NCBI GenBank assembly: GCA_964557345.1 | Contig: CAZKZU010000001.1 | Location: forward strand, 555 to 64,554 | DNA: 64,000 nucleotides | Reading direction: 5' to 3' | From: an uncultured Methanosarcinales archaeon | Lineage (GTDB): Archaea > Nanobdellota > Nanobdellia > Woesearchaeales > DATGWN01 | Part shown: positions 1,606 through 58,314 of the stretch, piece by piece | Numbering within the stretch: the first letter of the stretch is position 1 | Layout of the letters: each line of letters opens with the position of its first letter | Made by a program: the position numbers and the translations under genes | The notes under the pieces: model-generated | Databases searched by the model: none | Told to the model about the DNA's origin: nothing | Seen by the model: the letters and a program-made list of their open reading frames with translations, nothing else

Positions 1606-1848
1606 TTTTTTTGTTTAAAATAGTTGAATGTATTGTTGTAGTATAATGAAATTATTGTTGCAGTTATTCTTTAGTGAATATTTTGTATCTTTTTTTGCTT
1701 ATTTTTACTCATGGTAAATATTTGGTTTATAAATTATCTTTCTTGAATGTAATTTTTGAAAACTAAAAGTTATAAAATTCACTTCAAATAATATAGTATC
1801 TAAAAGCTATAACTTTAAAAACATAAGGTTACAGTCAATTTAATCGCA

Positions 1849-1896
1849 ATACAACTTGTTGTAGTTTAACCTAACTGATAACACAACGGGTTGTGT
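1849..1896 (+). promoter_or_regulatory. Two palindromic boxes, ACAACttGTTGT (1851-1862) and ACACAACggGTTGTGT (1881-1896), with centres 32 bp apart, upstream of nrdD; NrdR-box-like operator
   Basis: Perfect palindromes read from the sequence. The 16 bp box with ACAC..GTGT ends and ~32 bp spacing resembles bacterial tandem NrdR boxes. A GGAGAGGTG Shine-Dalgarno-like motif lies at 1911-1919. Confidence 0.35.
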
Positions 1897-1924
1897 TTGT
1901 GCTTTTTTATGGAGAGGTGCTAGA

Positions 1925-4084
1925 ATGGAAGGAGTAGACGAATCATACGTTATAAGACGAGTTAAAAAAAGAGACGGATCTATTGTTCTTTTTGATGAAA
2001 AAAGAATTGCAGAAGCAATCTTTAAAGCAGCAAAAGCAGTAGGTGGCGACGATTATGATCTTTCAAAAAAATTAGCACGAAAAGTTACAAACACTCTAGA
2101 TATATTTTTCTATTCCGGTTCTATTCCTCACGTTGAAGCAATCCAAGATTTAATTGAAAAAACTTTAGTTGAAGAAGGTCATGCGAAAACTGTTAAGGCA
2201 TATATTCTTTATCGAAAACAAAGAACTGAACTTAGAGATTCTAAATCTTTTGCATTTGATGTTGAGAAAACTATGGATGGTTATTTAATGCAGTCGGACT
2301 GGAGAGTTAAAGAAAATAGTAATGTTGATTTTTCTCATTCTGGACTTTTACTTCACGTAGCAGGAACAGTTATTGCAAGATATACGCTTGATCGAATTTA
2401 TCCTCCAGAAGTTGCAAATGCGCATAAGGAAGGAGATTTTCATATTCATGATTTAAGTATGGGTATTGCAGGTTATTGTGCAGGTTGGAGTCTTAGACAA
2501 TTACTTGATGAGGGATTTAATGGTGTTCCAGGTAAAACTGATTCTGTTCCGCCAAGACATTTAGATTCTGCATGTTGGCAAATAATTAATTTTATTGGTA
2601 CTTTACAAAACGAATGGGCTGGTGCACAAGCGTTCTCGAGTTTTGATACTTATATGTCTCCTTTTGTAAAAAAAGATAATATGGAGTATAAAAAAGTAAA
2701 ACAATTAATGCAAGCATTTGTATTCAATATGAATATTCCTTCTAGATGGGGTGGACAAACTCCTTTTTCGAACATTACTTTAGATTGGATTGTTCCTGAA
2801 GATTTAAAAAATAAAAAAGCAACTGTTGGTGGTGAAAGACAAACTTTTACATACGGAGATTGTCAAAAAGAAATGGATATGATTAATAGAGCATTTATGG
2901 AAGTTATGACTGAAGGAGATGCTAAGGGCAGAATTTTTACTTTTCCAATTCCAACATATAATGTAACTAAAGATTTTAATTGGGATTCTGAGAATGCAAA
3001 ATTGTTATTCGACATGACTGCAAAATACGGTATTCCTTATTTTCAAAATTTTGTTAATTCAGAATTAAATCCTGGTGATGTAAGAAGTATGTGTTGTAGA
3101 CTTCAAATGAATTTAAATGAATTAAAGGCAAGAGGTGGAGGACTTTTTGGTTCTGCTGAAATGACTGGATCTCTTGGCGTTGTTACAATTAATCTTCCTC
3201 GAATAGGATATTTATCTAATAGTAAAGATGAGTTTTTTGCACGACTTGGAAAATTAATGGAAGTTGCAAAAGAATCTCTTGAAATTAAAAGAAAAATCGT
3301 TTCATTGAATATGGAAAGAGGTCTAATGCCTTATTCTAAAAGATATTTAGGAACTTTAAATAATCATTTCAATACCATTGGTTTAGTTGGTATGAATGAA
3401 GCTATAATGAATTTTATGGGTCCAGAATATAATATTACTACAGTTGATGGAAAAGCATTTGCTGAAGAAGTTTTAGATTTTATGAGAGTAAAATTAACTA
3501 AATTCCAAGAAGAAACTGGAAATATGTATAATTTAGAAGCAACACCTGCCGAAGGTACTAGTTATAGACTTGCAAAAATAGATAAAGAAAAATACAGCGA
3601 TATTATAACTCAAGGAATTGATGCGCCTTATTATACAAATAGTACTCAACTTCCAGTAGGATATACTGATGATGTATTTGAAGCACTTGATTTGCAAGAT
3701 TCACTTCAGATTAAATATACTGGAGGAACTGTTCTTCACGGATTTATCGGCGAGAGTCTTCAAACTGGAGATACTATTAAAAAATTAGTTAAAAGAATCG
3801 CGGAAAATTATAGATTGCCTTATTTTACAATAACTCCGACTTTTAGTATTTGTAAAGAGCATGGTTATGTTGCAGGAAAACATTTTGAATGTCCAACTTG
3901 TAAAGGCGCTTGTGAAGTTTTCAGTAGAGTTGTAGGATATTTAAGACCCGTACAAAATTGGAATAATGGTAAAAGAGAAGAGTTTAAAGAACGAGTTCCG
4001 TTTTCAGTATGTAAGTCAATTGAAAGTAAACATGGAACTCTTGGAAAACCTAAGACTCTTGCTCAACAAATAACTACTTATTGA
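1925..4084 (+). CDS. nrdD: Anaerobic ribonucleoside-triphosphate reductase (class III RNR), with N-terminal ATP-cone
   Basis: ATP-cone VIRRVKKRDGSIV..FDEKRI; C-terminal Zn-ribbon CPTCKGAC and glycyl-radical motif RVVGYLRP; 719 aa. Confidence 0.9.
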   Translation: MEGVDESYVIRRVKKRDGSIVLFDEKRIAEAIFKAAKAVGGDDYDLSKKLARKVTNTLDIFFYSGSIPHVEAIQDLIEKTLVEEGHAKTVKAYILYRKQRTELRDSKSFAFDVEKTMDGYLMQSDWRVKENSNVDFSHSGLLLHVAGTVIARYTLDRIYPPEVANAHKEGDFHIHDLSMGIAGYCAGWSLRQLLDEGFNGVPGKTDSVPPRHLDSACWQIINFIGTLQNEWAGAQAFSSFDTYMSPFVKKDNMEYKKVKQLMQAFVFNMNIPSRWGGQTPFSNITLDWIVPEDLKNKKATVGGERQTFTYGDCQKEMDMINRAFMEVMTEGDAKGRIFTFPIPTYNVTKDFNWDSENAKLLFDMTAKYGIPYFQNFVNSELNPGDVRSMCCRLQMNLNELKARGGGLFGSAEMTGSLGVVTINLPRIGYLSNSKDEFFARLGKLMEVAKESLEIKRKIVSLNMERGLMPYSKRYLGTLNNHFNTIGLVGMNEAIMNFMGPEYNITTVDGKAFAEEVLDFMRVKLTKFQEETGNMYNLEATPAEGTSYRLAKIDKEKYSDIITQGIDAPYYTNSTQLPVGYTDDVFEALDLQDSLQIKYTGGTVLHGFIGESLQTGDTIKKLVKRIAENYRLPYFTITPTFSICKEHGYVAGKHFECPTCKGACEVFSRVVGYLRPVQNWNNGKREEFKERVPFSVCKSIESKHGTLGKPKTLAQQITTY

Positions 4085-4347
4085 TTATAATAAGCACCTC
4101 TCTATTTTTTATTTTTTTATTTTTAAAAAAATTATATTTTAATTTATGATCCTCGATGATGATAAGTTTCGATTAAATAAAAAGTAGCATCTGTCAAAAC
4201 TTTTATACGTTTTGCTAAGGTTCTGCGTTCCCGGATGGAGCATCCCCTCGCAACGAACTCGCAGTGTGGAATTATGAGTTTTGACCTTTTGGGATGCAAC
4301 TTTTTATTGTACAATTAATTTATTATTTATTTAGGAAGGTATTCCCT

Positions 4348-4578
4348 ATGAAAGCATTATTGTTTACAACTCCAACTTGTATTAAATGTAAGAAAGTAAA
4401 AGATTTTCTTGCTAAGCAAAATAAATTTTCTGTTGAATTAGTTGATGCGTCTACTCCTTCTGGTCTTGAGCTTGCTAAAAAGTATGATGTGTTTGGTGTT
4501 CCCACTGTTGTTTTTTTTGATGGCGATACTTTGTTAGGTGTTGCAACTGATATTGACGAGGTAGAACAATATTTATGA
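4348..4578 (+). CDS. Small glutaredoxin/NrdH-like redoxin (CxxC)
   Basis: TPTCIKCKKVKDFL thioredoxin-fold CxxC motif, ~76 aa. AGGAAGGT Shine-Dalgarno-like motif 8 nt upstream. The ORF-track start at 4294 is probably an over-extension. Stop overlaps the nrdG start (ATGA). Confidence 0.55.
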   Translation: MKALLFTTPTCIKCKKVKDFLAKQNKFSVELVDASTPSGLELAKKYDVFGVPTVVFFDGDTLLGVATDIDEVEQYL

Positions 4579-5345
4579 TTCTGAAAAACTTTGGGTCTGC
4601 ATCATGTAATGATTCTGAAAAGTTAAATGCTTTTTCTGATACTTCAAAAATATTTCCTATAAAAGGATTTCAAGCGACATCTCTTATAGATTACCCTGGA
4701 AATATTTGTGCAGTTATTTTTTTAGCTGGATGTAATTTTAGATGTGGCTTTTGTCACAATAAAGATTTAGTTTTTAATTCTAGTAATTTACAACTTCATA
4801 ACGAGGAAGAAATATTAAGTTTGCTTTCTAAACGTTCTAAGTTGATTGATGGGGTTTGTATTACTGGAGGAGAACCAACACTCTATCCTTACTTATATGA
4901 TTTTATTGTCAAGATAAAAAAAATAGGACTGAAAGTTAAGCTTGATACTAATGGGACTAATACTTTTCTTTTATCTCAGTTGATTTCTGAAAGATTGGTG
5001 GATTATGTTGCTATGGATATTAAGCAATGTAAGCAAAAATATGATTTAATTTGTGGCACTAAAGTAGATATGTCTCAAGTAATTGGTTCTGTAGAATTAT
5101 TGAAAATAAGTTATATTGATTATGAATTTAGGACGACGTTTGTACCTGAGTTAATAAGTTGGGAAGATATAGTTGAAATTTCTAAATGGTTAAATGGTGC
5201 AAAAAGATATGTTTTGCAACAATTTGTTCCTATGTATACTCTTATTAATCCAAAATTGACCAAAACTATTTCTGAAGCTGATTTGAAAATGATTTCTGAG
5301 AGAGTAAAGCCTTGCTTTGGAACAGTTGAAGTTAGAGGACATTAA
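4575..5345 (+). CDS. nrdG: Anaerobic RNR activating enzyme (radical SAM)
   Basis: CNFRCGFCHN (Cx3Cx2C) and GGEPT motifs. Translationally coupled to the upstream redoxin gene, downstream of nrdD. Confidence 0.75.
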   Translation: MILKNFGSASCNDSEKLNAFSDTSKIFPIKGFQATSLIDYPGNICAVIFLAGCNFRCGFCHNKDLVFNSSNLQLHNEEEILSLLSKRSKLIDGVCITGGEPTLYPYLYDFIVKIKKIGLKVKLDTNGTNTFLLSQLISERLVDYVAMDIKQCKQKYDLICGTKVDMSQVIGSVELLKISYIDYEFRTTFVPELISWEDIVEISKWLNGAKRYVLQQFVPMYTLINPKLTKTISEADLKMISERVKPCFGTVEVRGH

Positions 5346-8257
5346 TATTCTTTTATGCCTAATATATCTCCTAAAGTGCCTTTAATTTTTGCCTTAGTCA
5401 ATTTTGCATATTCTAATATCTCAGAAGTATTTGCACCTTTTCCACTCATCCCATAGAAAGTATTTTCTCCTAATAAAACATATGACCAAATACAATCCAT
5501 TCTATGTTCGCTAATCAATTCATTTATTTTATCAATCCAATCGATAGTCGCCAAACGTTTCTGCTGAACATTTTTATTATTCAAATCTTTTTCTGCCTTA
5601 GTTTCAACCAAATAGATCTTATCTTTTATTCTAACTAAAAAATCAGGAAAATAGTGCGCTAATAACCCATCATCTCTAATGTAAATAATATTCGCAAAAT
5701 CATAATAGTGTTCATTAATCTTCATAAATGCTTTCACTTGGGAATCTGCGTCTATAAATTCAACAAACGCCTTTTCAAACCCGCCTTTATTTGAAGGATA
5801 TGCAATTTTAGGATATATAGTCTTGGCAACATCAAGTGCATAAGTTTCTCTAATTTTAATTTCATTTATTTCTGAAAATGCTCTTTTAATTATCTTTGCA
5901 TCAATTACTTTAAGACTATTTTGCAAATCATATATACATTGACTTACATTTTTGACAATATGATTTATTATTTTTTCTTGAGTTAAAAGTAAAACCTTCC
6001 AATTATTATTTTTAAGTGGTTCAAATTCCTGTCCAAAAAGCTTATATCTTATATATTCATCAACTAAACTTGCAACCAATGCCGAATTAATCTGCATTAT
6101 CGGATACTTTTGCTCTTTATTTTTTCCTATTTTAATTGGTATAAAAGATACTGCATTAACTATTTTTTGAATAAAAGAATTATAACTTTTTGCTGTAAAA
6201 ATATCAGAAGTTACAGTATATTCCCCATATTTAGTTTTTACCGTCAATTCTTCTCCATAAAAAGTATCGCCATCTTTCAAAACTAAAGGAGTTAAATCAT
6301 CTAGAGGGATAGGAAATTTTTCTAACTTTTCAGAAGAAAGAGATATTGACGAGAAATGTTCTTCCTTATCATGGATTATTATAGGCCAAGAAAAATCGTA
6401 ATCTACAAAGTTTTCTTTTAATGAAATGGAAATAATATCTCCGACAACATGATTTTTAGTAGGCATTTCTTTAGTAATCGCAACAGCACCACTTAATTCA
6501 TTATCATAAAACTGAATAAAAGCAGGATGTTCTATAATACTCAATATATCCATATAATTGTCTGGCTCTTCCTTTCGCACAAGTAATTTATTTCTAATTT
6601 CTTTTTTTGCATCTAAATACTGTGGTTCCCTCCACATTAATCTTAATCCTCTTCCTATAGTCTGTTCTAAAAGAATAAAAGAACTGCTAGATCTTAAAGG
6701 AACAATAACGCAAATATTGCTTACATCAAAACCTTCTCGAAGCATTAAAACAGAAATAATAATTTTAGGCTTTGAATGTTTATCTATACTAAATAATTTC
6801 TGTTTAAGAGAACTCCATTCATCATCAGAAATTTCTCCTTTTTTATTAGAATGTACTTCAATTAATTCATCCTCACTATATCCTTCTTGCTTCAAGAATG
6901 CTGACACATAAGAAACAACTTTTGTGTCTTCACACATAACTAAAAGTTTGGGGTACTTTGTGGGATCTAATGATGTAAATCCTTCTTCAAGAATTCGTAA
7001 TTTAGAAATTCCAGCTCGGAGCATAATTCTTTGACCATCAGATAATCCAAGTATGGTATTTCCTTCTCTTTCAGACTTAAAATCAAGCGGAAGTGCTGCA
7101 AGTTCTTTTCGTTTATCAATTGCAACAGTCTTGACTAATCCTAACTTAATTGCAGTAGGTAATTCAAAATTAGTAATTATATGAGGAAAAAAATGTTTTG
7201 TTCTCTGCTGACCAGAACCTGTAACTGAATACGGAGTCGCTGAAAAATCAATTTGCAAAAATTTATTCTGCTTTTTTTCTGCAATCAAATCAATTGCTTT
7301 TTGCCATTTCTTTTCAAAAGTATCGTCTGATTTTTTAAACTCACCTAAATGATGAGCTTCATCGTTAAAAACAACTAAATCAGAAAGATTTGCTAAATAT
7401 TCAATTTCTTTTCCTCTAAAATGTTGGTTATCCAATTCTTCAAGTGAATGACCTGCAGATATGCCAGGAGTAATAGGAAGCATTTGCTTCACAGTTTTTT
7501 CAGGACTATCTAAAGGAGTTTCAACATCTTCTTCCTCCTCGCTTCCAGACAATAAATGCCAATTAGTAATTGCGATTAACCCCTCTCCAGTTACTTTTTT
7601 CCCGATTTCATCTTTTGTTGAAACGCTAGACTGAATAAACCCGAACATTTCTTCTTTATATGCTTGTGGAAGAAATAAATTCTCAAACTTTTTAAAATCA
7701 GACTCTTCAAAATTTCGTGTACCATCAATGTTTTGCTTTCCCAAATATGCATCAAGCAATCTTTCATAAACAATAAGTCCTGGTGCGATTAATAAAAAGT
7801 TTTTTGAAAATCTTCCAGACATAGACTCTTCATACTTTGCATTTAAATATTGCCAAATAAGAATGGCAGATAAAACCCAAGTTTTACCAGTTCCCGTAGC
7901 CATTTTAATGCAATATTTAGATAATTCATATTTTTCTTTTTTCAAATCAATCAAATCCAATCCTGATAACAATTCGGGATAAATAGATTTGTAAATATCA
8001 GTCACAGTTTTGATTTTCAATATTTCATGAATATAAATAACATTAAGAATTGCTTGCCATTGTCCCTCATGGAAATTAGCATAACGCAAATCTCCAAATG
8101 AACCACTAGGATCCCAAAATCGCAATAAATCTCTAGTAATGGGAGACACTTTTTCCAAAAAGTCTCCTTTCTCATATTCTTTATTTACTTTTTCAGTTAT
8201 AGCTTTCGCTAACTTTAAAGGAATATCCCCAGTTCCGAGATTTTTTGCTTGGACCAT
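5342..8257 (-). CDS. res: Type III restriction enzyme Res subunit (SF2 helicase + nuclease)
   Basis: Walker A MATGTGKTW, DEAH-type FNDEAHHLG, 971 aa. Co-directional and immediately downstream of the mod gene. Confidence 0.85.
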   Translation of the reverse strand: MVQAKNLGTGDIPLKLAKAITEKVNKEYEKGDFLEKVSPITRDLLRFWDPSGSFGDLRYANFHEGQWQAILNVIYIHEILKIKTVTDIYKSIYPELLSGLDLIDLKKEKYELSKYCIKMATGTGKTWVLSAILIWQYLNAKYEESMSGRFSKNFLLIAPGLIVYERLLDAYLGKQNIDGTRNFEESDFKKFENLFLPQAYKEEMFGFIQSSVSTKDEIGKKVTGEGLIAITNWHLLSGSEEEEDVETPLDSPEKTVKQMLPITPGISAGHSLEELDNQHFRGKEIEYLANLSDLVVFNDEAHHLGEFKKSDDTFEKKWQKAIDLIAEKKQNKFLQIDFSATPYSVTGSGQQRTKHFFPHIITNFELPTAIKLGLVKTVAIDKRKELAALPLDFKSEREGNTILGLSDGQRIMLRAGISKLRILEEGFTSLDPTKYPKLLVMCEDTKVVSYVSAFLKQEGYSEDELIEVHSNKKGEISDDEWSSLKQKLFSIDKHSKPKIIISVLMLREGFDVSNICVIVPLRSSSSFILLEQTIGRGLRLMWREPQYLDAKKEIRNKLLVRKEEPDNYMDILSIIEHPAFIQFYDNELSGAVAITKEMPTKNHVVGDIISISLKENFVDYDFSWPIIIHDKEEHFSSISLSSEKLEKFPIPLDDLTPLVLKDGDTFYGEELTVKTKYGEYTVTSDIFTAKSYNSFIQKIVNAVSFIPIKIGKNKEQKYPIMQINSALVASLVDEYIRYKLFGQEFEPLKNNNWKVLLLTQEKIINHIVKNVSQCIYDLQNSLKVIDAKIIKRAFSEINEIKIRETYALDVAKTIYPKIAYPSNKGGFEKAFVEFIDADSQVKAFMKINEHYYDFANIIYIRDDGLLAHYFPDFLVRIKDKIYLVETKAEKDLNNKNVQQKRLATIDWIDKINELISEHRMDCIWSYVLLGENTFYGMSGKGANTSEILEYAKLTKAKIKGTLGDILGIKEY

Positions 8258-8277
8258 AGTAACTTGTTTAAAATTAT

Positions 8278-8772
8278 TTAGTGTTTATCATATTTTTTTG
8301 TTTTGATTAATTTTAACTTTTCAATATACTCTAAAGGCAAATTACATTCTTTAGCACCTTCAATTATAGTCGTCATGTAATTTACATAGGGTAAAAACAT
8401 ATCTTCAGTCATCAAACTAAAGTCATTGCTATAAACTCTGTAGGTTATTGCAGAATATGTTGTACCTGCCATATTTGTAACTAATATGCTCTCTCTTTTA
8501 TATTTTGGAAATTGTTCTTGACTAGTGCCCTCCCAATAATCTAATTTTAAAATATCATCATCAGTTACTTCAAATATAACACCCCACAACTTATCGTTCA
8601 TACTACTATCAAAACTAGCAACGCCACCTTTTTTTTTCAAAGAAAATTTTGGAAAAATTAATTTCATATTATTGATATAGACGATATCTAACAATTGCAA
8701 AGTCTTATTCTTAAGCCTTTCCCTTATTTGAGATAAATTCATATTTGAACCATATGCAAAATAATATTTCAT
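8278..8772 (-). CDS. Gamma-glutamyl cyclotransferase / AIG2-like fold protein embedded in the R-M operon
   Basis: N-terminal YFAYGSNM hallmark and LDYWEG motif (GGCT/GGACT/AIG2 family). Lies 40 bp after the mod stop and 20 bp before the res start, on the same strand. Confidence 0.55.
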   Translation of the reverse strand: MKYYFAYGSNMNLSQIRERLKNKTLQLLDIVYINNMKLIFPKFSLKKKGGVASFDSSMNDKLWGVIFEVTDDDILKLDYWEGTSQEQFPKYKRESILVTNMAGTTYSAITYRVYSNDFSLMTEDMFLPYVNYMTTIIEGAKECNLPLEYIEKLKLIKTKKYDKH

Positions 8773-8812
8773 TTTCCCTCAATAAAAACATAACTTTCTA
8801 TAATTAATATAA

Positions 8813-10870
8813 TCATATATCCTTCACCGTAACACTTTCAAATCCGAATACATCAACAGCTTTAATACAAATTTTTCTTCGACCTGACTTTTTTGGAACT
8901 ATTAATTTTGCTGATTTAATCACCCTAAACTCATCACCATCATTATCTGTGTTTTGACGATAATCCTGCCATTTACTTCTAAAAACTTCTCCATCATAAT
9001 CTGGATCAATACTCCAATATTCGATCAAAGATAAAGGATCTTCCTGAATTACTTTATCCAGTTTTTCTTTATTTTCTTTATCCAACGGTAATGCATCAGG
9101 AGAAAGAAGAACGTAATTTTCCAGTTCAATTTCAATTTCATCTTCGTCATCACTATATTTTTTTGTTTTAACTGGTTTAACAGTTAAATATTGTAAAGAA
9201 GAAAACTTAACCTTTTCTGATTTAATTAAGTCTTGATAACTTGTTTTTGATTTTAATTTATCAAGCAAATCAGGAGGAATTACTAAAACTTCAAGTTTAT
9301 CATCGTTTAAACTACTTAAAATTTTACCTATATTAACATCAAAATTCCATCCAAGAACAATAACTTTATCCCAACCGCCCATAAAACTAGCTCTCAATTC
9401 TTGAGCTTTTTTAAGCGTACTATATCCAGTTAATTTAGATGGAGAATCAACAATAACTAAAATCTTACTAAGTTTAATATATCCAAAATTATTTGGAATC
9501 CCTTCCTGTTGAGGAAAAGGCAAAGCGCCGAAAAGATTTATCACAACTTGAGATAAATCTCCAATAGTCTTAAACTCTGATTTCTCAAACTGTTCTTTTT
9601 GATAATCTCCTATTGATTGATATAAAAAAGGCTTCGCCTCTTGATCAATTAATCGCTTTCTCTGAATCATGCATGCAGGTTTTCCTAATTCACACATAAT
9701 CCAATTTCTTTTTAATTCTTCAGAAGCTATACCTGTTGTTCCAGAGCCTGCAAAAAAGTCTGCAACAATATCATTTTCTCTTGATGCCATTTCAATAATC
9801 CTTTTCAAAAAATTAGGAGATTTGGCAGTTAAAAAATCACTATTATAATCATAAGCAATAACATCATCCCATAGTGTATCGCAAATAGTATATTCCTTCG
9901 GAGCTAAGAAATATTCGGGCATACCGCTACTACCTAACCTAATAAATTCTAAATCAGAATGTTCTAAGGCATATTCATCCAAGGATAAATCATCACGATA
10001 TTTTTTTAAATATATATTATAATTTTCAACTGCTTTTTCAGCTCTATCTTTATTCCACATCCACTGACCTGTAGTAATTTTTACACCTAATAACTCATAT
10101 CTTAATGTAGGCCTATCTGCTGGTTGTTTGAATCCATGCCAATACCCTTTTCGAAAAAATTCTTTAGTAGGGGCATTAAATTTAACAGAAGAAGTTTTCG
10201 CGTATACATAAACTGAATCCCCAAATAAATTAAGAGAATTTAATTTGTCGAATTGTTTGGTTAGATTCTTATTAATTCTTCTGGTCACTATCTCGTTTCT
10301 AAAATTCTCTTTTCCAAATATATCATCCATAATAACTTTAACATAATGTCCAACATGCCAATCAATATGTACATAAATCGAACCTTGTTCTGATAATAAC
10401 TCTCTCATTAAAATTAATCGAGGTATCATCATTTGCAAATATGAAGCTGTTCCATCTTTCCAGGTATCAGAATAAGCGAATTGCTCTATTACTGTTGGCT
10501 TTTGTTCAATATCTGTTCCTGGAAGATGAATTTTAGTTCTATAATCCGCTTTAGAATCAAATGGTGGATCTATGTAAATCAAATTAATTTTTCCGCGCAT
10601 GGACGACATTCCTGTTTGAGGATCGCCTGCAAGTAATGCTTGCATCGCAAGTAGATTATCTCCATAAATCATTCTGTTAAGCCAATCCTTTTTTCCTAAT
10701 TCTTTAACACTCTGACCAAAGAAACCGCCTTTTGCTTTTGTTGGAAGAACTAATTCATTTGTCTGCAAAGTAACACGATTAGGTTTAGAAAGCCCATCTA
10801 AAATCTTTTGAGCTTCCTTTTTACCTTTTTCAATTATTTTTGGTAATTCTTCTATTAATGAGGCAGGCAT
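8813..10870 (-). CDS. mod: Type III R-M Mod subunit (beta-class N6-adenine DNA methyltransferase)
   Basis: Motif IV IYIDPPFDS precedes motif I DFFAGSGTTG; 685 aa; followed co-directionally by res. Confidence 0.85.
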   Translation of the reverse strand: MPASLIEELPKIIEKGKKEAQKILDGLSKPNRVTLQTNELVLPTKAKGGFFGQSVKELGKKDWLNRMIYGDNLLAMQALLAGDPQTGMSSMRGKINLIYIDPPFDSKADYRTKIHLPGTDIEQKPTVIEQFAYSDTWKDGTASYLQMMIPRLILMRELLSEQGSIYVHIDWHVGHYVKVIMDDIFGKENFRNEIVTRRINKNLTKQFDKLNSLNLFGDSVYVYAKTSSVKFNAPTKEFFRKGYWHGFKQPADRPTLRYELLGVKITTGQWMWNKDRAEKAVENYNIYLKKYRDDLSLDEYALEHSDLEFIRLGSSGMPEYFLAPKEYTICDTLWDDVIAYDYNSDFLTAKSPNFLKRIIEMASRENDIVADFFAGSGTTGIASEELKRNWIMCELGKPACMIQRKRLIDQEAKPFLYQSIGDYQKEQFEKSEFKTIGDLSQVVINLFGALPFPQQEGIPNNFGYIKLSKILVIVDSPSKLTGYSTLKKAQELRASFMGGWDKVIVLGWNFDVNIGKILSSLNDDKLEVLVIPPDLLDKLKSKTSYQDLIKSEKVKFSSLQYLTVKPVKTKKYSDDEDEIEIELENYVLLSPDALPLDKENKEKLDKVIQEDPLSLIEYWSIDPDYDGEVFRSKWQDYRQNTDNDGDEFRVIKSAKLIVPKKSGRRKICIKAVDVFGFESVTVKDI

Positions 10871-10968
10871 AGGTTTACAAAAGTTACTTATCGTTTAAAT
10901 ATGTTACGCTAATTGATACTCTATATGTTATTCTAGTTTATATGTAGATTATTACGCTATATGTATTT

Positions 10969-11223
10969 ATGAAGGAAAATCTATCTTTGTTAAGAAGTAA
11001 GCTAAAAAGGGATGTTTTGATGCTTTTAGAGGATAAAGAGCTTTCTCCAGTGATGATTGCTAAGCAATTGAAAAAACCAAGACCTAGTATAAGTAGGATA
11101 ATATTAGAATTAAAGGATAAGGATTATGTTTATTGTATTGATGAAAAGAAAGATAGGTGGCGATTCTATAAAGCAACTCCAAAGGGTAAGAAAACTTTAG
11201 ATGATATAAAAAAGTATGTTTGA
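10969..11223 (+). CDS. Small winged-HTH transcriptional regulator, divergent from mod
   Basis: 84 aa with a wHTH-like SPVMIAKQLKKPRPSISRIILELKDKDYV segment. Divergent promoter region shared with the R-M operon. Confidence 0.4.
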   Translation: MKENLSLLRSKLKRDVLMLLEDKELSPVMIAKQLKKPRPSISRIILELKDKDYVYCIDEKKDRWRFYKATPKGKKTLDDIKKYV

Positions 11224-11253
11224 ATAAATTAGAATTGTTAATATGATTTCTTG

Positions 11254-11808
11254 TTAAATAATGTCTTCAATTACTTTTACAAATGCTTTAGCTCTTTTTA
11301 GTGATGTTTTTGCTTTTTCTTTTTCTGCATTTTTTCCAAGTTCGTATGTGAATATTTTTCTTTTATTCATTTCTGCTGAGAAATCATCAATCATTTCAAA
11401 TACTCTGTTTTCTGAAATTTGCATGAGTTCTTCAGCTTCATTTATTGCTTGTTTATATTCTTCAATAAAGTGTTTTTTTAGTAATTTATTTTGATTGATA
11501 AAATAATATATTATTGCGTGATATGTGAAGCGATGGATACCGTATTCAGACTTTATTTTGTGATTATATTTTGCAAGAAGTGCTGTAGCTGCAAAGAACA
11601 TGGAGTAATAAGCACTGTTAATTACCCAAAGATACGTATTTATTTTTTCAGTTTCAGATATGTCAAAAAGCCTATTTGATACAATTATTGATTGTTTTGC
11701 TTTATCTAGAAAAAAATGATCTGTTCCTTCAATTGATTTAGTAATAATTCCTTCGGAAATGGCTCTTTTAATTATTTTATCGCTTTCGTTTAATTTATTA
11801 GTATCCAT
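11254..11808 (-). CDS. HEPN-like all-alpha protein, partner of the upstream nucleotidyltransferase
   Basis: All-helical 184 aa. Overlaps the upstream NTase gene by 11 nt. Paralog of 55755..56249. No canonical Rx4-6H motif. Confidence 0.35.
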   Translation of the reverse strand: MDTNKLNESDKIIKRAISEGIITKSIEGTDHFFLDKAKQSIIVSNRLFDISETEKINTYLWVINSAYYSMFFAATALLAKYNHKIKSEYGIHRFTYHAIIYYFINQNKLLKKHFIEEYKQAINEAEELMQISENRVFEMIDDFSAEMNKRKIFTYELGKNAEKEKAKTSLKRAKAFVKVIEDII

Positions 11809-12391
11809 TTTTTGTCTTTAATGTATTAATAAATTGCTCGTATCCTGTGATTACATAATGATTTTTTTCAATTTCGTTCCAAACGTTTATTGTTTTAGAT
11901 AGCCACATTTCTTTTAAATCCAGTTTTTTTATTATATTTATATCTGCATTATATAGTGAAAGCTGGTTTTTGATAACTCTTTCAAATTTATCTCTATTTA
12001 TGTCGTCATTAATTATAAATAGTAAATCCATATCTGAATTTTTTGTCGAGGCTCCTTTCGCATAGCTTCCGAATAAAATGCATGCAAAATTATATTCTAC
12101 GTTTAGAAGAGTTTCTTGGATGTTTTTTAAAGTTTTGTCTTTTTTTTCCGAAAATCTTTCCATTTCAACTGTTACATATTCGAGATTACATTTTTTGAAA
12201 TTAAGCTTTATAACTTTAGCAGAGCCTATTTTATTTGTGTTTATTAGCTCTTTTTTTTCTAATCCCTTTATTATTTTATGTGTTTGAGGATATTTTTGGT
12301 TTAATTTTTCGGATATTTTTTTGATAGATATATCTGTGGTGAAATCCTCGAACAATATTTTCAATATTTGGTATTCGTTTTTCTTTAACAT
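11798..12391 (-). CDS. wHTH-fused minimal nucleotidyltransferase (MNT/Pol-beta superfamily)
   Basis: GSYAKGASTKNSDMDLLFI (GS..D.D NTase motif) and an N-terminal wHTH-like segment. Paralog of 55187..55768. Confidence 0.6.
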   Translation of the reverse strand: MLKKNEYQILKILFEDFTTDISIKKISEKLNQKYPQTHKIIKGLEKKELINTNKIGSAKVIKLNFKKCNLEYVTVEMERFSEKKDKTLKNIQETLLNVEYNFACILFGSYAKGASTKNSDMDLLFIINDDINRDKFERVIKNQLSLYNADINIIKKLDLKEMWLSKTINVWNEIEKNHYVITGYEQFINTLKTKNGY

Positions 12392-28201: not shown

Positions 28202-29170
28202 TTATTCAAAAACTAATTTATTACAAGGAAATATTATATCTTCTCGCATTGTGGCTGTTTCTATTTTTATTACGTTTTTAGAGAATTCTTTTGTGAATTG
28301 CCCCATCGTTGAATCGTATTCTGCAAAGTTTTGTGCAAATAAGACTAGTTCTAAGTCCCATGATGCAATTTGTTTAACCATGTTGATTATTACTTTATTA
28401 TTTTTTATGTATTCATTTATTTTTTTTAGTAGATTGTCGTCTACGTCTTTTAGATAAACAAACGCTTTATAGTATTCATATCCTATTTTTTGGTAGTCTA
28501 TTATCGTGGAATATCTAATAATAATTTTGTCTTTTTTGAAGTTTTGTAGTCTTGTTCTTACTATGTCTACTGTCGTTTTTAGATTGAATGCGATTTCCGC
28601 TATATTTTTTTTGGCGTCCCAATATATTTCATTCAATACTTTTTTTCCAATAGCATCTATTTCAATTTCTTCTACTTTTTCAGTAAATGTTGTTAATGTT
28701 GTGATTTCGTCTATTAAGAAGTTTTTTTCATGCACGCTTACGCCTACTAGAGATGCCATTTTTATATCTAGAATTATATCTTTGTATTCTGAGATAAGTT
28801 CGTGTTTAATTTCAAATATTTCTTCTTTGGATTTAATAAAATAACTAACTCCTATGTTCCAGGCTCCTTCCGCAACTCCGATCCAATAAGTTCTTTTATC
28901 ATTTTTTATTTGTTTGATTAGTTGTTGTTTTTTATTTGGAAGGTTAAGTAAGTTTAAGTAAAACGTTTCTGTACTGTATCCTAATTTTGCATAGTCTATC
29001 CAGGTTTTGTATCCAGTTATTATTTTGTCTTTTTCTAGTCTTTTAATTCGGTATTTGACTGCATCTTTACTTTTTTTAGTTATTTTTGCAAGTTGAATGT
29101 CTGAAATTCGTGCATTCCTTTCTAATTCGAATAGAATTCTTTTATCTATTTTGTCGAGATTTATTTGCAT
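28202..29170 (-). CDS. Tandem (double) Lrp/AsnC-family transcriptional regulator
   Basis: Two successive wHTH + RAM-like halves (IDKRILFELERNARISDIQLAK... and LNEIYWDAKKNIAEIAFNLKTTVDIVRTRLQ...). Paralog of 57370..58314. Confidence 0.6.
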   Translation of the reverse strand: MQINLDKIDKRILFELERNARISDIQLAKITKKSKDAVKYRIKRLEKDKIITGYKTWIDYAKLGYSTETFYLNLLNLPNKKQQLIKQIKNDKRTYWIGVAEGAWNIGVSYFIKSKEEIFEIKHELISEYKDIILDIKMASLVGVSVHEKNFLIDEITTLTTFTEKVEEIEIDAIGKKVLNEIYWDAKKNIAEIAFNLKTTVDIVRTRLQNFKKDKIIIRYSTIIDYQKIGYEYYKAFVYLKDVDDNLLKKINEYIKNNKVIINMVKQIASWDLELVLFAQNFAEYDSTMGQFTKEFSKNVIKIETATMREDIIFPCNKLVFE

Positions 29171-35118: not shown

Positions 35119-36525
35119 ATGGACAGAGATTATATTTTTCATGAGTCAACAGAGAGTATTTGCCCGAAGTGTTTAGCGCGAATACCTGCCAAAATAATCT
35201 ATAAAGATAATAAGGTTTTTCTGAAAAAGTTTTGTAAAGTTCATGGTGAACAATTGGAATTGTATGAAGAAGATATTGAATATTATGAAACCAAAAAAGG
35301 ATTTGATAAGCCAGGTACAATTTCTAAAACGCAAACTAAAATTAATCGCGGATGTCCTTTTGATTGCGGGTTATGTCCTGATCATGATCAGCATACTTGT
35401 ATTGGTCTTATTGAAGTAACCAATAAGTGTAATCTTAATTGTCCAACATGTTATGCAAATAGTGGGAAAGGGAATTTTTTGTCTTTAGATAAATTATCTA
35501 AAATGATGGATTTTTTGATTGAATCAGAAGGTGGGCAGTCAGAAATTTTGCAGATTAGTGGAGGGGAGCCAACTATACATCCTGAAATAATTAAAATTAT
35601 TGAGTTAGCGAGAACTAAAAAAATAAATTACGTTATGCTTAATACTAATGGTGTGCGAATTGCTGAGGATGAGAATTTCGTAAAATCTCTTGGTAAGTTT
35701 AAAGGAAAGTTTGAAGTGTATTTGCAATTTGATGGTTTTTCTCCTAAAGCAAATATTGCACTTCGTGGAAAAGATTTGGTTAAAATTAAATTGAAGGCAA
35801 TCGAAAATTTGCGAAAATATAATATTCCCATAACTCTTGTAACAACAGTTCAAAAGGGTTTGAATGATTCTGAATTAGGGAAAATAATTAAGTTTGGAAT
35901 GGAAACTTCTTGTATTAGAGGAATAAATTTTCAACCGGTTTGTTATTCTGGAAGAGGTTCATTTAAAGACACTAAAAAGACTGAATTAATAAATGATCGA
36001 ATTACGCTTTCTGGCGTTATTAAAAAAATAGAGCAGCAATTGCCAGAAGTATTTGTGAAAGGCGATATTGTACCATTACCTTGTAATGCTGAACGTGTTG
36101 CTGTTACGTATTTGGCAAGATCTGGTGATAATAATGGTAATAATAAAAAAAATAATGATTTTATTCCAATAACAAGAAGTGTTAAAGTTAAAAGTTATCT
36201 TCCCTTAATAGATAATACTTTTGGTTTTGATGCAGATAAGATATTAAAACAAAATGTTAAAAAGGCAATTACTCCTGCGGGTTTTTGTAATTGTATGAGT
36301 TTTATTAAAGATCTTAAAGGCATTATTCCTTTGAGTTATGCATTAAAATCTGATGACGAGAAACTCACTTATTTGAATGAAAATACATTTAGGTTAAGCG
36401 TTACTTCTTTTATTGATGTGTTTAATTTTGATATTAAGTCGATGCAAAAAGAGTGTGTGCATATTATAACTCCTGATTTTAAAAAAATTCCTTTTTCAGC
36501 ATATAATATGTTTTATAGAAAATGA
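35119..36525 (+). CDS. Radical SAM enzyme with N-terminal rubredoxin/Zn-ribbon-like Cys cluster and a second Cys cluster; possible lipid-modifying enzyme (Tes/GDGT-MAS-like, tentative)
   Basis: CPKC..(x)..CKVHG; CPFDCGLCPDHDQHTC; radical SAM Cx3Cx2C in VTNKCNLNCPTCYA; GGEPT motif. Followed by lipid-related genes. Confidence 0.65.
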   Translation: MDRDYIFHESTESICPKCLARIPAKIIYKDNKVFLKKFCKVHGEQLELYEEDIEYYETKKGFDKPGTISKTQTKINRGCPFDCGLCPDHDQHTCIGLIEVTNKCNLNCPTCYANSGKGNFLSLDKLSKMMDFLIESEGGQSEILQISGGEPTIHPEIIKIIELARTKKINYVMLNTNGVRIAEDENFVKSLGKFKGKFEVYLQFDGFSPKANIALRGKDLVKIKLKAIENLRKYNIPITLVTTVQKGLNDSELGKIIKFGMETSCIRGINFQPVCYSGRGSFKDTKKTELINDRITLSGVIKKIEQQLPEVFVKGDIVPLPCNAERVAVTYLARSGDNNGNNKKNNDFIPITRSVKVKSYLPLIDNTFGFDADKILKQNVKKAITPAGFCNCMSFIKDLKGIIPLSYALKSDDEKLTYLNENTFRLSVTSFIDVFNFDIKSMQKECVHIITPDFKKIPFSAYNMFYRK

Positions 36526-55065: not shown

Positions 55066-55186
55066 ACATTTGTAGTACAGGTGTACTATATAAAGTTTTG
55101 GGTATTTTTTCTGAATTATTCAATGTTTGTTAAACAAAAGCTTTATATACTAATGGTGTATACTTATACACTGGCGGTGTATATTT

Positions 55187-55768
55187 ATGTTAACTCCCAA
55201 CGAAAAAAAGGTGTTGAAATTGATTATATTTTCTTTTGATACTGATTATTCTATTAATCAAATAGCAAAAGAGTGTAAGTTATCTGCTAATGGGGCATAT
55301 AAAATTCTTTTAAAATATGAAAAAGAAGGTATTTTACAACATAAAAATATTGCTAATTTGAAATCCTATAAGATTGATTTTAAAAGCGATAAGACCGCCA
55401 GTATTCTCGAATTAGTTTTGATTCCAGAATTGGATAAAAAAATTAAATTGAGATTAGATGATTTGAAAGAAGTAAGAGAGGTTTCTTCTGCTTGTATTTT
55501 CTTCGGTTCTTATATTAATAAAAAGGATCCGAATGATTTGGATGTAATTTTTGTTATTGATAAAAATAAATATAAGAATTATTCCGAAAAAATTGCTGTT
55601 GCAAAAGAAATAATTCCGATTAAAGTACATGATGTTGTTCAAACCTTCGAAGATTTAAAGCAAAATATTTTAAGTAAAGACAAAATTGTTCTTAGTGCAC
55701 TAAAAGAAGGAGTTATACTTTGGGGCTATAATGTTGTAATTCAGGTGATTAAAGATGTCTATAACTGA
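55187..55768 (+). CDS. wHTH-fused minimal nucleotidyltransferase (paralog of 11798..12391)
   Basis: ACIFFGSYINKKDPNDLDVIFVID NTase motif; N-terminal wHTH-like segment. Confidence 0.6.
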   Translation: MLTPNEKKVLKLIIFSFDTDYSINQIAKECKLSANGAYKILLKYEKEGILQHKNIANLKSYKIDFKSDKTASILELVLIPELDKKIKLRLDDLKEVREVSSACIFFGSYINKKDPNDLDVIFVIDKNKYKNYSEKIAVAKEIIPIKVHDVVQTFEDLKQNILSKDKIVLSALKEGVILWGYNVVIQVIKDVYN

Positions 55769-57369: not shown

Positions 57370-58314
57370 TTAAAATAAATGTTTTATGTGCTGTTTTTCT
57401 ACATAATATATTGCATCATTTATTTTGTAATGAATTGCTTTTTTTAAGTCATTTATTATTTTCGAGTATTCAATTATATCTTTGCATTCTATGTTTATTA
57501 ATGCTTCGAAGTGACCAATAAATATTCCGAAGTAAGTTATGTTAGGATGTTTTTCTGCAAATCTTTCTAGATTTTTTAGTTCTTTTGTGTCTGTAAATGA
57601 AATTAAAACTTTGTGTCTTTGAAAACATAATTTATCTAAATTTATTGTAATTCCATACCCTGTTATTATGTTTTCTTTTTCTAGGTATTCAATTATTTTC
57701 TTAATTTTATGTACTGATATATTAGTTTTTTTAAATATTTCAACAAGTGATGCTCTCGGATATGCTATCAATGTGTTTAAAATTTTTTCTTGACCGTTAT
57801 TTAATTTTTTTATTTCGCAAATGTATTTTTTTCTAATTTTAGGAGGATTTGCGGGATTCAAATATTTTCTGTTGTAACTTATTTCTTGTACTGGTTGAAT
57901 TATTTCTTTTATTATTATATTTTGTCCGAATTTATCTTTTAATTTGGTTATTTCTTGAAAAATCTCTAATTTGTTTTTAGCAAAAAAAGAAACATATAGA
58001 TCAAAGACTTCTTCGCATTTAATTATCACTCTGATCTTTTCGTTTTTGTTTAAATAATCAATAATATTTTTTTCAATTTTTGGCGTGGTCTGATTGTATT
58101 TAATTAGAAGTTGGAGGGTTATGTTTCCTAAATATCCTAAATCGATTGCAGTATAAAATCTAGTGATAACTCCAGTTTCTATCAATTTATTAACTTTAGC
58201 AGATACTGCTTCTCTAGTTAGATGAACCTTTTTACCAATATCCGCATAAGACTCTCTTGAATTGTTGTCGAGCCTGTTAATTATCATTAAATCTTTTTGG
58301 TTCATTGTTTCCAT
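57370..58314 (-). CDS. Tandem (double) Lrp/AsnC-family transcriptional regulator
   Basis: Two wHTH+RAM halves (IINRLDNNSRESYADIGKKVHLTREAVSAKVNKLIETGVI... and ILNTLIAYPRASLVEIFKKTNISVHKIKKIIEYLEKENII...). Paralog of 28202..29170. Confidence 0.6.
   Translation of the reverse strand: METMNQKDLMIINRLDNNSRESYADIGKKVHLTREAVSAKVNKLIETGVITRFYTAIDLGYLGNITLQLLIKYNQTTPKIEKNIIDYLNKNEKIRVIIKCEEVFDLYVSFFAKNKLEIFQEITKLKDKFGQNIIIKEIIQPVQEISYNRKYLNPANPPKIRKKYICEIKKLNNGQEKILNTLIAYPRASLVEIFKKTNISVHKIKKIIEYLEKENIITGYGITINLDKLCFQRHKVLISFTDTKELKNLERFAEKHPNITYFGIFIGHFEALINIECKDIIEYSKIINDLKKAIHYKINDAIYYVEKQHIKHLF

Follow-up and report, generated by a model that had tools for sequence, protein, structure and literature searches.

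NrdR boxes were reportedly first predicted by Rodionov and Gelfand in 2005. The operator is now described as two 16-bp, partially palindromic boxes, separated by a linker of 15-16 bp (rarely 26-27 bp) whose sequence is not conserved and whose length brings the two boxes to the same side of the helix (PMC13584703). Six positions of the box are highly conserved, C4, A6, A8, T9, T11 and G13; mutagenesis showed C4 and G13 to be critical for NrdR binding, and native bacterial boxes contain 63-100% A+T between these two positions (PMC13584703). As for the protein, PMC9110341 describes Streptomyces coelicolor NrdR as a dodecamer unable to bind DNA in the presence of ATP alone, and as a tetramer that occupies both boxes and represses in the presence of dATP and ATP. 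A precedent for the association of NrdR with a ribonucleotide reductase (RNR) operon in archaea is that of the haloarchaeal nrdR-nrdAB operons, tied to inter-domain transfer and described by Lundin et al. 2010 as being of bacterial origin (PMC3019208).

Here we compare with these systems a site located upstream of the nrdD gene in a 64-kb stretch of DNA with 29.6% GC, which we call the window (Table 1). The bacterial operators of nrdDG, nrdAB and nrdHIEF in E. coli, and of nrdRJ and nrdAB in S. coelicolor (PMC9110341, PMC12176259, PMC13584703), consist of two 16-bp boxes, as does the site in the window. Common features include a 16-bp linker, within the canonical 15-16 bp, the presence of C4, A6, T11 and G13 in each box, and a position past the promoter but ahead of the start codon in an RNR operon. 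Furthermore, a published synthetic consensus box, ACACAACATCTAGTGG, has the same left arm, ACACAAC, as found in the window. Box 1 matches five of the six consensus positions and box 2 four, the only deviations being at A8/T9: the centres are TT and GG, versus AT in bacterial NrdR boxes, and that of box 2 (CGGG) is unusually GC-rich. With 50% A+T from C4 to G13, in a genome of about 30% GC, box 2 falls under the native bacterial range. The promoter also differs, as an archaeal host implies one of the TATA/TFB type, versus a sigma-70 promoter for bacterial NrdR. A first-pass annotation of this DNA had noted the likeness to NrdR boxes; sequence, spacing and position all fit it, and the reading of 1849-1896 as a two-box NrdR operator of ordinary type is well supported.

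Judging from its genes, the host is a DPANN-type archaeon. The window encodes pelota (TIGR00111, 202.9 bits vs a cutoff of 177.65) and a Trm5b-like methyltransferase, which bears out the archaeal character that had been suspected. The nearest named relatives of its NrdD belong to Woesearchaeota, Undinarchaeales and Nanoarchaeota, and the relatives' contigs carry genes for PCNA, archaeal primase, S27e, eIF2-alpha, Nop10, SRP54/RIO1 and thermosome. NrdD itself matches the NRDD (PF13597, E=4.6e-197) and ATP-cone (PF03477, E=1.5e-21) families; for the thioredoxin-like ORF, a shorter version of 76 aa is called in another assembly.

Table 1. Features of the nrdD locus in the window and box pairs at loci of close archaeal relatives (box 1-linker length-box 2; identities are to the NrdD of the window)
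Feature	Position	Strand	Remarks
Candidate archaeal TATA box TTTAAAAA	1814..1821	+	27 bp before box 1; proposed by analogy with relatives
Weaker alternative TATA candidate AATTTAAT	1837-1844		4 bp before box 1
Putative NrdR box 1 ATACAACTTGTTGTAG	1849..1864	.	consensus C4, A6, T9, T11, G13; T at A8
Inter-box linker, 16 bp	1865..1880	.	read from the sequence
Putative NrdR box 2 ACACAACGGGTTGTGT	1881..1896	.	C4, A6, T11, G13; GG replaces AT centre
Shine-Dalgarno-like sequence GGAGAGGTG	1911..1919	+	5 nt upstream of ATG
nrdD, class III anaerobic ribonucleoside-triphosphate reductase, N-terminal ATP-cone	1925..4084	+	719 aa
Small thioredoxin/glutaredoxin-like protein, nrdD operon	4294..4578	+	
nrdG-type radical-SAM activase	4575..5345	+	4-nt overlap with thioredoxin-like ORF
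Box pair, L083			NrdD 77% identical; CCACAAGATGTTGTGG-16-CCACAACCTGTTGTGT; no adjacent nrdR
Box pair, L169			NrdD 75% identical; ACACAACAGGTTGTAT-15-ACACAACGGGTTGTTA; no adjacent nrdR
Box pair, L168			NrdD 72% identical; ATACAATGCATTGTAT-16-ACACAACATGTTGTTG; no adjacent nrdR
Box pair, L085 (Woesearchaeota)			NrdD 72% identical; CCACAATATGTTGTGG-16-TAACAACATATGGAGT; no adjacent nrdR
Box pair, L086 (Undinarchaeales, JAWOEA010000021)			NrdD 72% identical; boxes precede nrdR; adjacent nrdR
Box pair, L167 (GCA_964426715)			NrdD 70% identical; boxes precede nrdR; adjacent nrdR
Box pair, L170			NrdD 75% identical; boxes precede nrdR; adjacent nrdR

The two boxes are centred at 1856.5 and 1888.5, 32 bp apart, and 29 bp separate the end of box 2 from the nrdD ATG in the window sequence. 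They had been called perfect palindromes: the inverted-repeat arms are indeed exact (6+6 bp in box 1, 7+7 bp in box 2), but the 2-bp centres TT and GG are non-self-complementary and break the symmetry. We searched for box pairs using a score derived from the published NrdR consensus alone, prior to inspecting the window. The site obtained the top score in the whole window (27.0, runner-up 24.0) and falls inside the 319-bp region upstream of nrdD; a score of 27 is attained anywhere in 3.3% of simulated 64-kb sequences. No further site for this motif was found in the 64-kb window, the next-best pairs scoring at most 24 and lying in coding sequence, nor did we find other nrd genes there. A profile of 46 pairs from other, independent related loci (nhmmer) also had the window site as its top match, with a weak E-value (0.25) that we attribute to the atypical box centres.

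Short inverted repeats are abundant in AT-rich genomes, and the window holds 43 of the 6-2-6 type, which would be in line with palindromes arising by chance within AT-rich intergenic DNA. However, the core common to both boxes, ACAACNNGTTGT, is expected only 0.07 times per 64 kb from dinucleotide shuffles and 0.02 times from Markov simulation, yet it is present without mismatch in two copies in the window, both at the box pair and 32 bp apart; none of 150 Markov simulations contained at least two copies. As the boxes are also kept upstream of orthologous genes, a chance origin was ruled out by these core statistics and by conservation, and we dismiss it with near certainty.

This conservation was assessed at loci containing NrdD relatives, 80 metagenomic and 80 genomic among the matches listed, plus the seven loci of the closest NrdD protein matches. 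For 81 of the 146 non-redundant loci (4-22 kb, among the matches listed), the best-scoring pair of the entire locus is situated upstream of nrdD at a distance of 1 kb or less, while the positional expectation is about 11 of 146. Sixty-five loci present a strong upstream pair, most commonly with a linker of 16 bp (36 sites) or 15 bp (18 sites). All seven close archaeal relatives have a box pair directly upstream of nrdD or of nrdR-nrdD. The window, L083, L085, L168 and L169 share a variant with exact ACAAC/GTTGT arms and mostly non-AT centres, and the sequence ACACAACGGGTTGT makes up the first 14 bases of box 2 in both L169 and the window. Across 20 archaeal sites, A6, T11 and G13 show little or no variation, and C4 is found in 17/20 and 20/20; these sites were chosen by a score that rewards these very positions, and the independent evidence is their location at nrd promoters.

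Is the GC-rich centre of box 2 compatible with recognition by NrdR? The affinity of the S. coelicolor and E. coli proteins is unchanged on TT- or CG-centred boxes (PMC13584703 Table 5). In addition, a DPANN nrdR-nrdJ operon (L171) has the pair ACGCAACATATGGGGT-15-ACACTACGGGTGGGGT directly upstream of nrdR. The GG-centred ACACTACGGGTGGGGT thus adjoins nrdR, and a GG centre does co-occur with NrdR.

Two papers call NrdR "rare in archaea" (PMC9110341, PMC12176259), and the most recent figure is that 22% of archaeal genomes have it (PMC13584703). We found the protein (PF22811 Zn-ribbon plus ATP-cone) annotated in Undinarchaeales, Woesearchaeota, Nanoarchaeota/Nanoarchaeia, Aenigmarchaeota, Micrarchaeota and unclassified archaea. 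Moreover, three of the seven closest archaeal relatives (L086, L167 and L170) have nrdR as the gene just before nrdD, in an archaeal gene context of PCNA, archaeal primase or thermosome. The view of NrdR as essentially bacterial, expressed in the first-pass annotation, does not withstand the 22% figure, the many DPANN annotations and this adjacency, and the convergent regulator proposed there is unneeded, as NrdR itself is known in archaea. Since NrdR and its boxes are common in DPANN archaea, the oddity of such an operator in an archaeon mostly dissolves.

The operons of L086, L167 and L170, of the form nrdR-nrdD(-trx)-nrdG, are close counterparts of that in the window: their NrdD proteins belong to the same clade (70-75% identity), the gene set of nrdD, a small thioredoxin-like gene and nrdG is common to all, and their box pair, with a 15-16 bp linker, is just downstream of the TATA box. 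They differ in that the operon opens with nrdR and has the boxes ahead of this gene, which points to autoregulation, whereas in the window, L083, L085, L168 and L169 the boxes are directly before nrdD and nrdR is non-adjacent. No nrdR was found within the window, as already stated in the first-pass annotation: tblastn with E. coli and B. subtilis NrdR gave E-values of at least 0.6. An identical NrdD was met elsewhere only on short contigs of the same organism (8.5, 3.0 and 2.3 kb). Among the matches listed, no NrdR protein maps to the contig of the window or to that of L083. One NrdR candidate, P0262, was rejected because it comes from a different MAG (GCA_041479965), in which it is the leading gene of an nrdR-nrdJ operon. 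Among the 65 loci whose upstream box pair is strong, 41 lack an adjacent nrdR, hence an unlinked nrdR is the usual arrangement. We consider it likely that the boxes serve as the operator for a repressor of the NrdR type (Zn-ribbon plus ATP-cone), whose gene would lie at another place in the genome.

A recurrent DPANN gene order, PCNA - ... - small Fer4_13 ferredoxin - nrdR - RNR, is observed at L167 (254-8731), L170 (160-7652) and L171 (4684-14201), with the addition of RNase J-like and DUF1858 genes in L170 and L171. In this PCNA-linked order, L167 and L170 have nrdD as the RNR gene, and L171 has a class II nrdJ with an intein. In the window, nrdD is found in the context NUDIX - DsbA-like - nrdD. 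Given this differing context, the nrdR that we infer elsewhere in this organism's genome may remain at the PCNA-linked locus.

Alternatively, nrdR could have been lost, with the boxes left as a decaying relic or bound by an unrelated archaeal regulator. Such a loss would agree with the lack of nrdR in 64 kb, with the ACAAC/GTTGT arms and mostly non-AT centres of the loci that have no adjacent nrdR (the window, L083, L085, L168 and L169), and with the presence in the window of two HTH_24/AsnC-type proteins (28202-29170 and 57370-58314). However, the exact arms (6+6 and 7+7 bp) are kept among relatives whose NrdD is just 75-77% identical, which argues for ongoing selection on C4, A6, T11, G13 and the 15-16 bp linker. 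The GG-centred box that adjoins nrdR in L171 and the prevalence of unlinked nrdR also speak against a loss, which we regard as unlikely. It is conceivable, if rather doubtful, that the operator of one DPANN sublineage (the window, L083, L168 and L169), with its non-AT and in part even GC-rich centres, is read unlike the bacterial paradigm, either by a divergent NrdR or, nrdR being lost, by a non-NrdR factor. A divergent NrdR might need no AT-centred DNA kink, and would repress a TATA/TFB promoter through occlusion of the start site.

How did this system come to be present in an archaeon? The first-pass annotation had suggested a horizontal acquisition of the nrd locus. In a rough neighbour-joining (NJ) tree of 41 sequences, based on BLOSUM62 distances and without support values, the NrdD of the window nests in a clade of seven loci (L083, L170, L169, L167, L085, L168 and L087). 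Five of these are archaeal by name or by neighbouring genes, and the other two, L168 and L169 (Logan contigs), by their placement in the tree. Next nearest to this DPANN clade are CPR/Patescibacteria; further out, archaea and bacteria of other lineages are interleaved. At 32%, nrdD is close in GC content to the window (30%). The nesting within DPANN and the host-like GC leave a recent acquisition from bacteria unsupported, and we rejected it on these two grounds. Because the tree is interleaved, an ancient exchange of an nrdR/nrdD module between DPANN archaea and bacteria, especially CPR, is plausible, and it would fit the mobility of RNR genes (PMC3019208). The haloarchaeal case concerns the class I RNR of Halobacteria and shows a clear signal of a bacterial donor; the window, in contrast, has a class III RNR from a DPANN clade and no sign of recent transfer.

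Archaeal relatives present a canonical TATA box, TTTATAAA or TTTATATA, with an A-rich BRE-like stretch before it. This TATA box is 16-19 bp before box 1 in L083, L085, L086, L102, L103, L004, L169 and L170, and 4-10 bp before box 1 in several other relatives; in L020, L031, L043 and L098 it is downstream of the boxes. The window lacks a canonical TTTATAAA at 16-19 bp before box 1. Considering the usual archaeal distance from TATA box to transcription start, the TATA boxes ahead of box 1 would put the start of the relatives within box 1 or close beside it. With either TATA candidate of the window, the boxes would be at or just downstream of the transcription start, before the ribosome-binding site.

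If both the binding of NrdR at these boxes and its nucleotide-sensing logic are extrapolated from the proteins of Streptomyces and E. coli, a dATP/ATP-loaded NrdR tetramer would occupy both boxes, presented on one face of the helix by their 32-bp spacing of about three turns. Bound past the likely TATA box and ahead of the nrdD start codon, the repressor might block recruitment of RNA polymerase or early elongation. Plentiful dNTPs would then shut off nrdD, the trx-like gene and nrdG, and NrdR would come off the DNA when ATP dominates.

A control at the RNA level was also considered, in which the transcribed boxes pair as a long 5'-UTR hairpin and a second hairpin sequesters the Shine-Dalgarno sequence, with mRNA stability, termination or translation under control. 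The predicted fold of 1840-1930 does join box 1 and box 2 in a continuous stem of about 18 bp (14 bp box-to-box, with U.G at the TT/GG centres), for an MFE of -24.1 kcal/mol (z = -2.9), and forms a second stem over GGAGAGGUG in the Shine-Dalgarno region. However, two copies of one palindromic consensus are always mutually complementary, and in the 20 archaeal sites the inter-box complementarity (10.75/16) is not in excess of the within-box dyad symmetry (10.3 and 10.5). The centre positions are uncompensated in L083 and L169, and where the TATA box is downstream of the boxes (L020, L031, L043 and L098) these would be untranscribed. A hairpin explains neither the fixed spacing of 15-16 bp nor the NrdR-specific bases, and an Rfam scan returned no RNA family at the site. 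The hairpin was rejected as the primary function, its stability being explained by palindrome duplication with no inter-box excess in the 20 sites, and we hold an RNA-level element to be very improbable. The box 1-box 2 hairpin is probably a by-product of the duplicated palindrome, and may still act as a secondary layer of control.

With an NrdR operator at this site, a repressor and operator well characterised in bacteria would gain a concrete example at the promoter of a DPANN archaeon. Genomes of Woesearchaeota-like archaea, Undinarchaeales and Micrarchaeia have conserved boxes, including variants with a GC-rich centre, upstream of nrdD and, in one relative, of nrdJ; for the most part these boxes come shortly after a TATA box. 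This provides annotators of such genomes with a direct regulatory call, and offers a test case for a bacterial-type nucleotide-sensing repressor acting on the archaeal transcription machinery. In the literature, we found no work linking NrdR with DPANN nor, among the matches listed, with Woesearchaeota or Nanoarchaeota, and no experimental work on any archaeal NrdR. The known picture is unchanged since NrdR in archaea was already reported; the interest that remains is modest and concerns the GC-rich box centre, a sublineage with unlinked nrdR, and the action of NrdR on an archaeal promoter.

Several relatives present unusual RNR genes. An NrdR-type Zn-ribbon (CxxC...CxxC, RRRR, FTTYE) is fused in frame to NrdD in L098 (9860-12136, Woesearchaeota WJJM01000007.1), L150 (4066-6291), L020 (5346-7616), L031 (5873-8161) and P0114. 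In the first four, the ribbon is joined directly to NrdD's own ATP-cone, giving a protein of about 756 aa, while the 885-aa P0114 combines an entire NrdR, ribbon and cone, with a complete NrdD behind it. We found no description of this fusion in the literature. NrdR-box pairs are present upstream of the fusion genes, so that the DNA-binding domain of the repressor may be built into the enzyme itself. In L083 (10001-12335), L169 (10001-12233) and L170 (5350-7652), NrdD is split into a main ORF of 667-678 aa followed by a separate ORF of 67-81 aa that matches the NRDD family and is presumably the C-terminal glycyl-radical piece; the NrdD of the window, by contrast, is a single ORF. LAGLIDADG inteins are found in several DPANN RNR genes, namely those of the NrdD homologues of about 980 aa P0027, P0052 and P0091, and the nrdJ of L171 (10548-14201).

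Other parts of the window also deserve mention. The block directly behind nrdG (5342-12391) resembles a defence island. Its genes encode a ResIII helicase of 971 aa that has a TnsA-like endonuclease domain, an AIG2-like protein, an N6/N4 DNA methylase of 685 aa, and a HEPN and nucleotidyltransferase pair. A radical-SAM protein with an HMPTM zinc ribbon (35119-36525) resembles the tetraether lipid synthase Tes and TrsS, with scores under both NCBIfam cutoffs (325 vs 450 and 344 vs 490). Finally, two 7-2-7 inverted repeats 83 bp apart, TAGTACAGGTGTACTA (55073-55088) and GTGTATACTTATACAC (55156-55171), are located just upstream of an ORF for a Polbeta-type nucleotidyltransferase (55187-55768), and this pair could be another operator.
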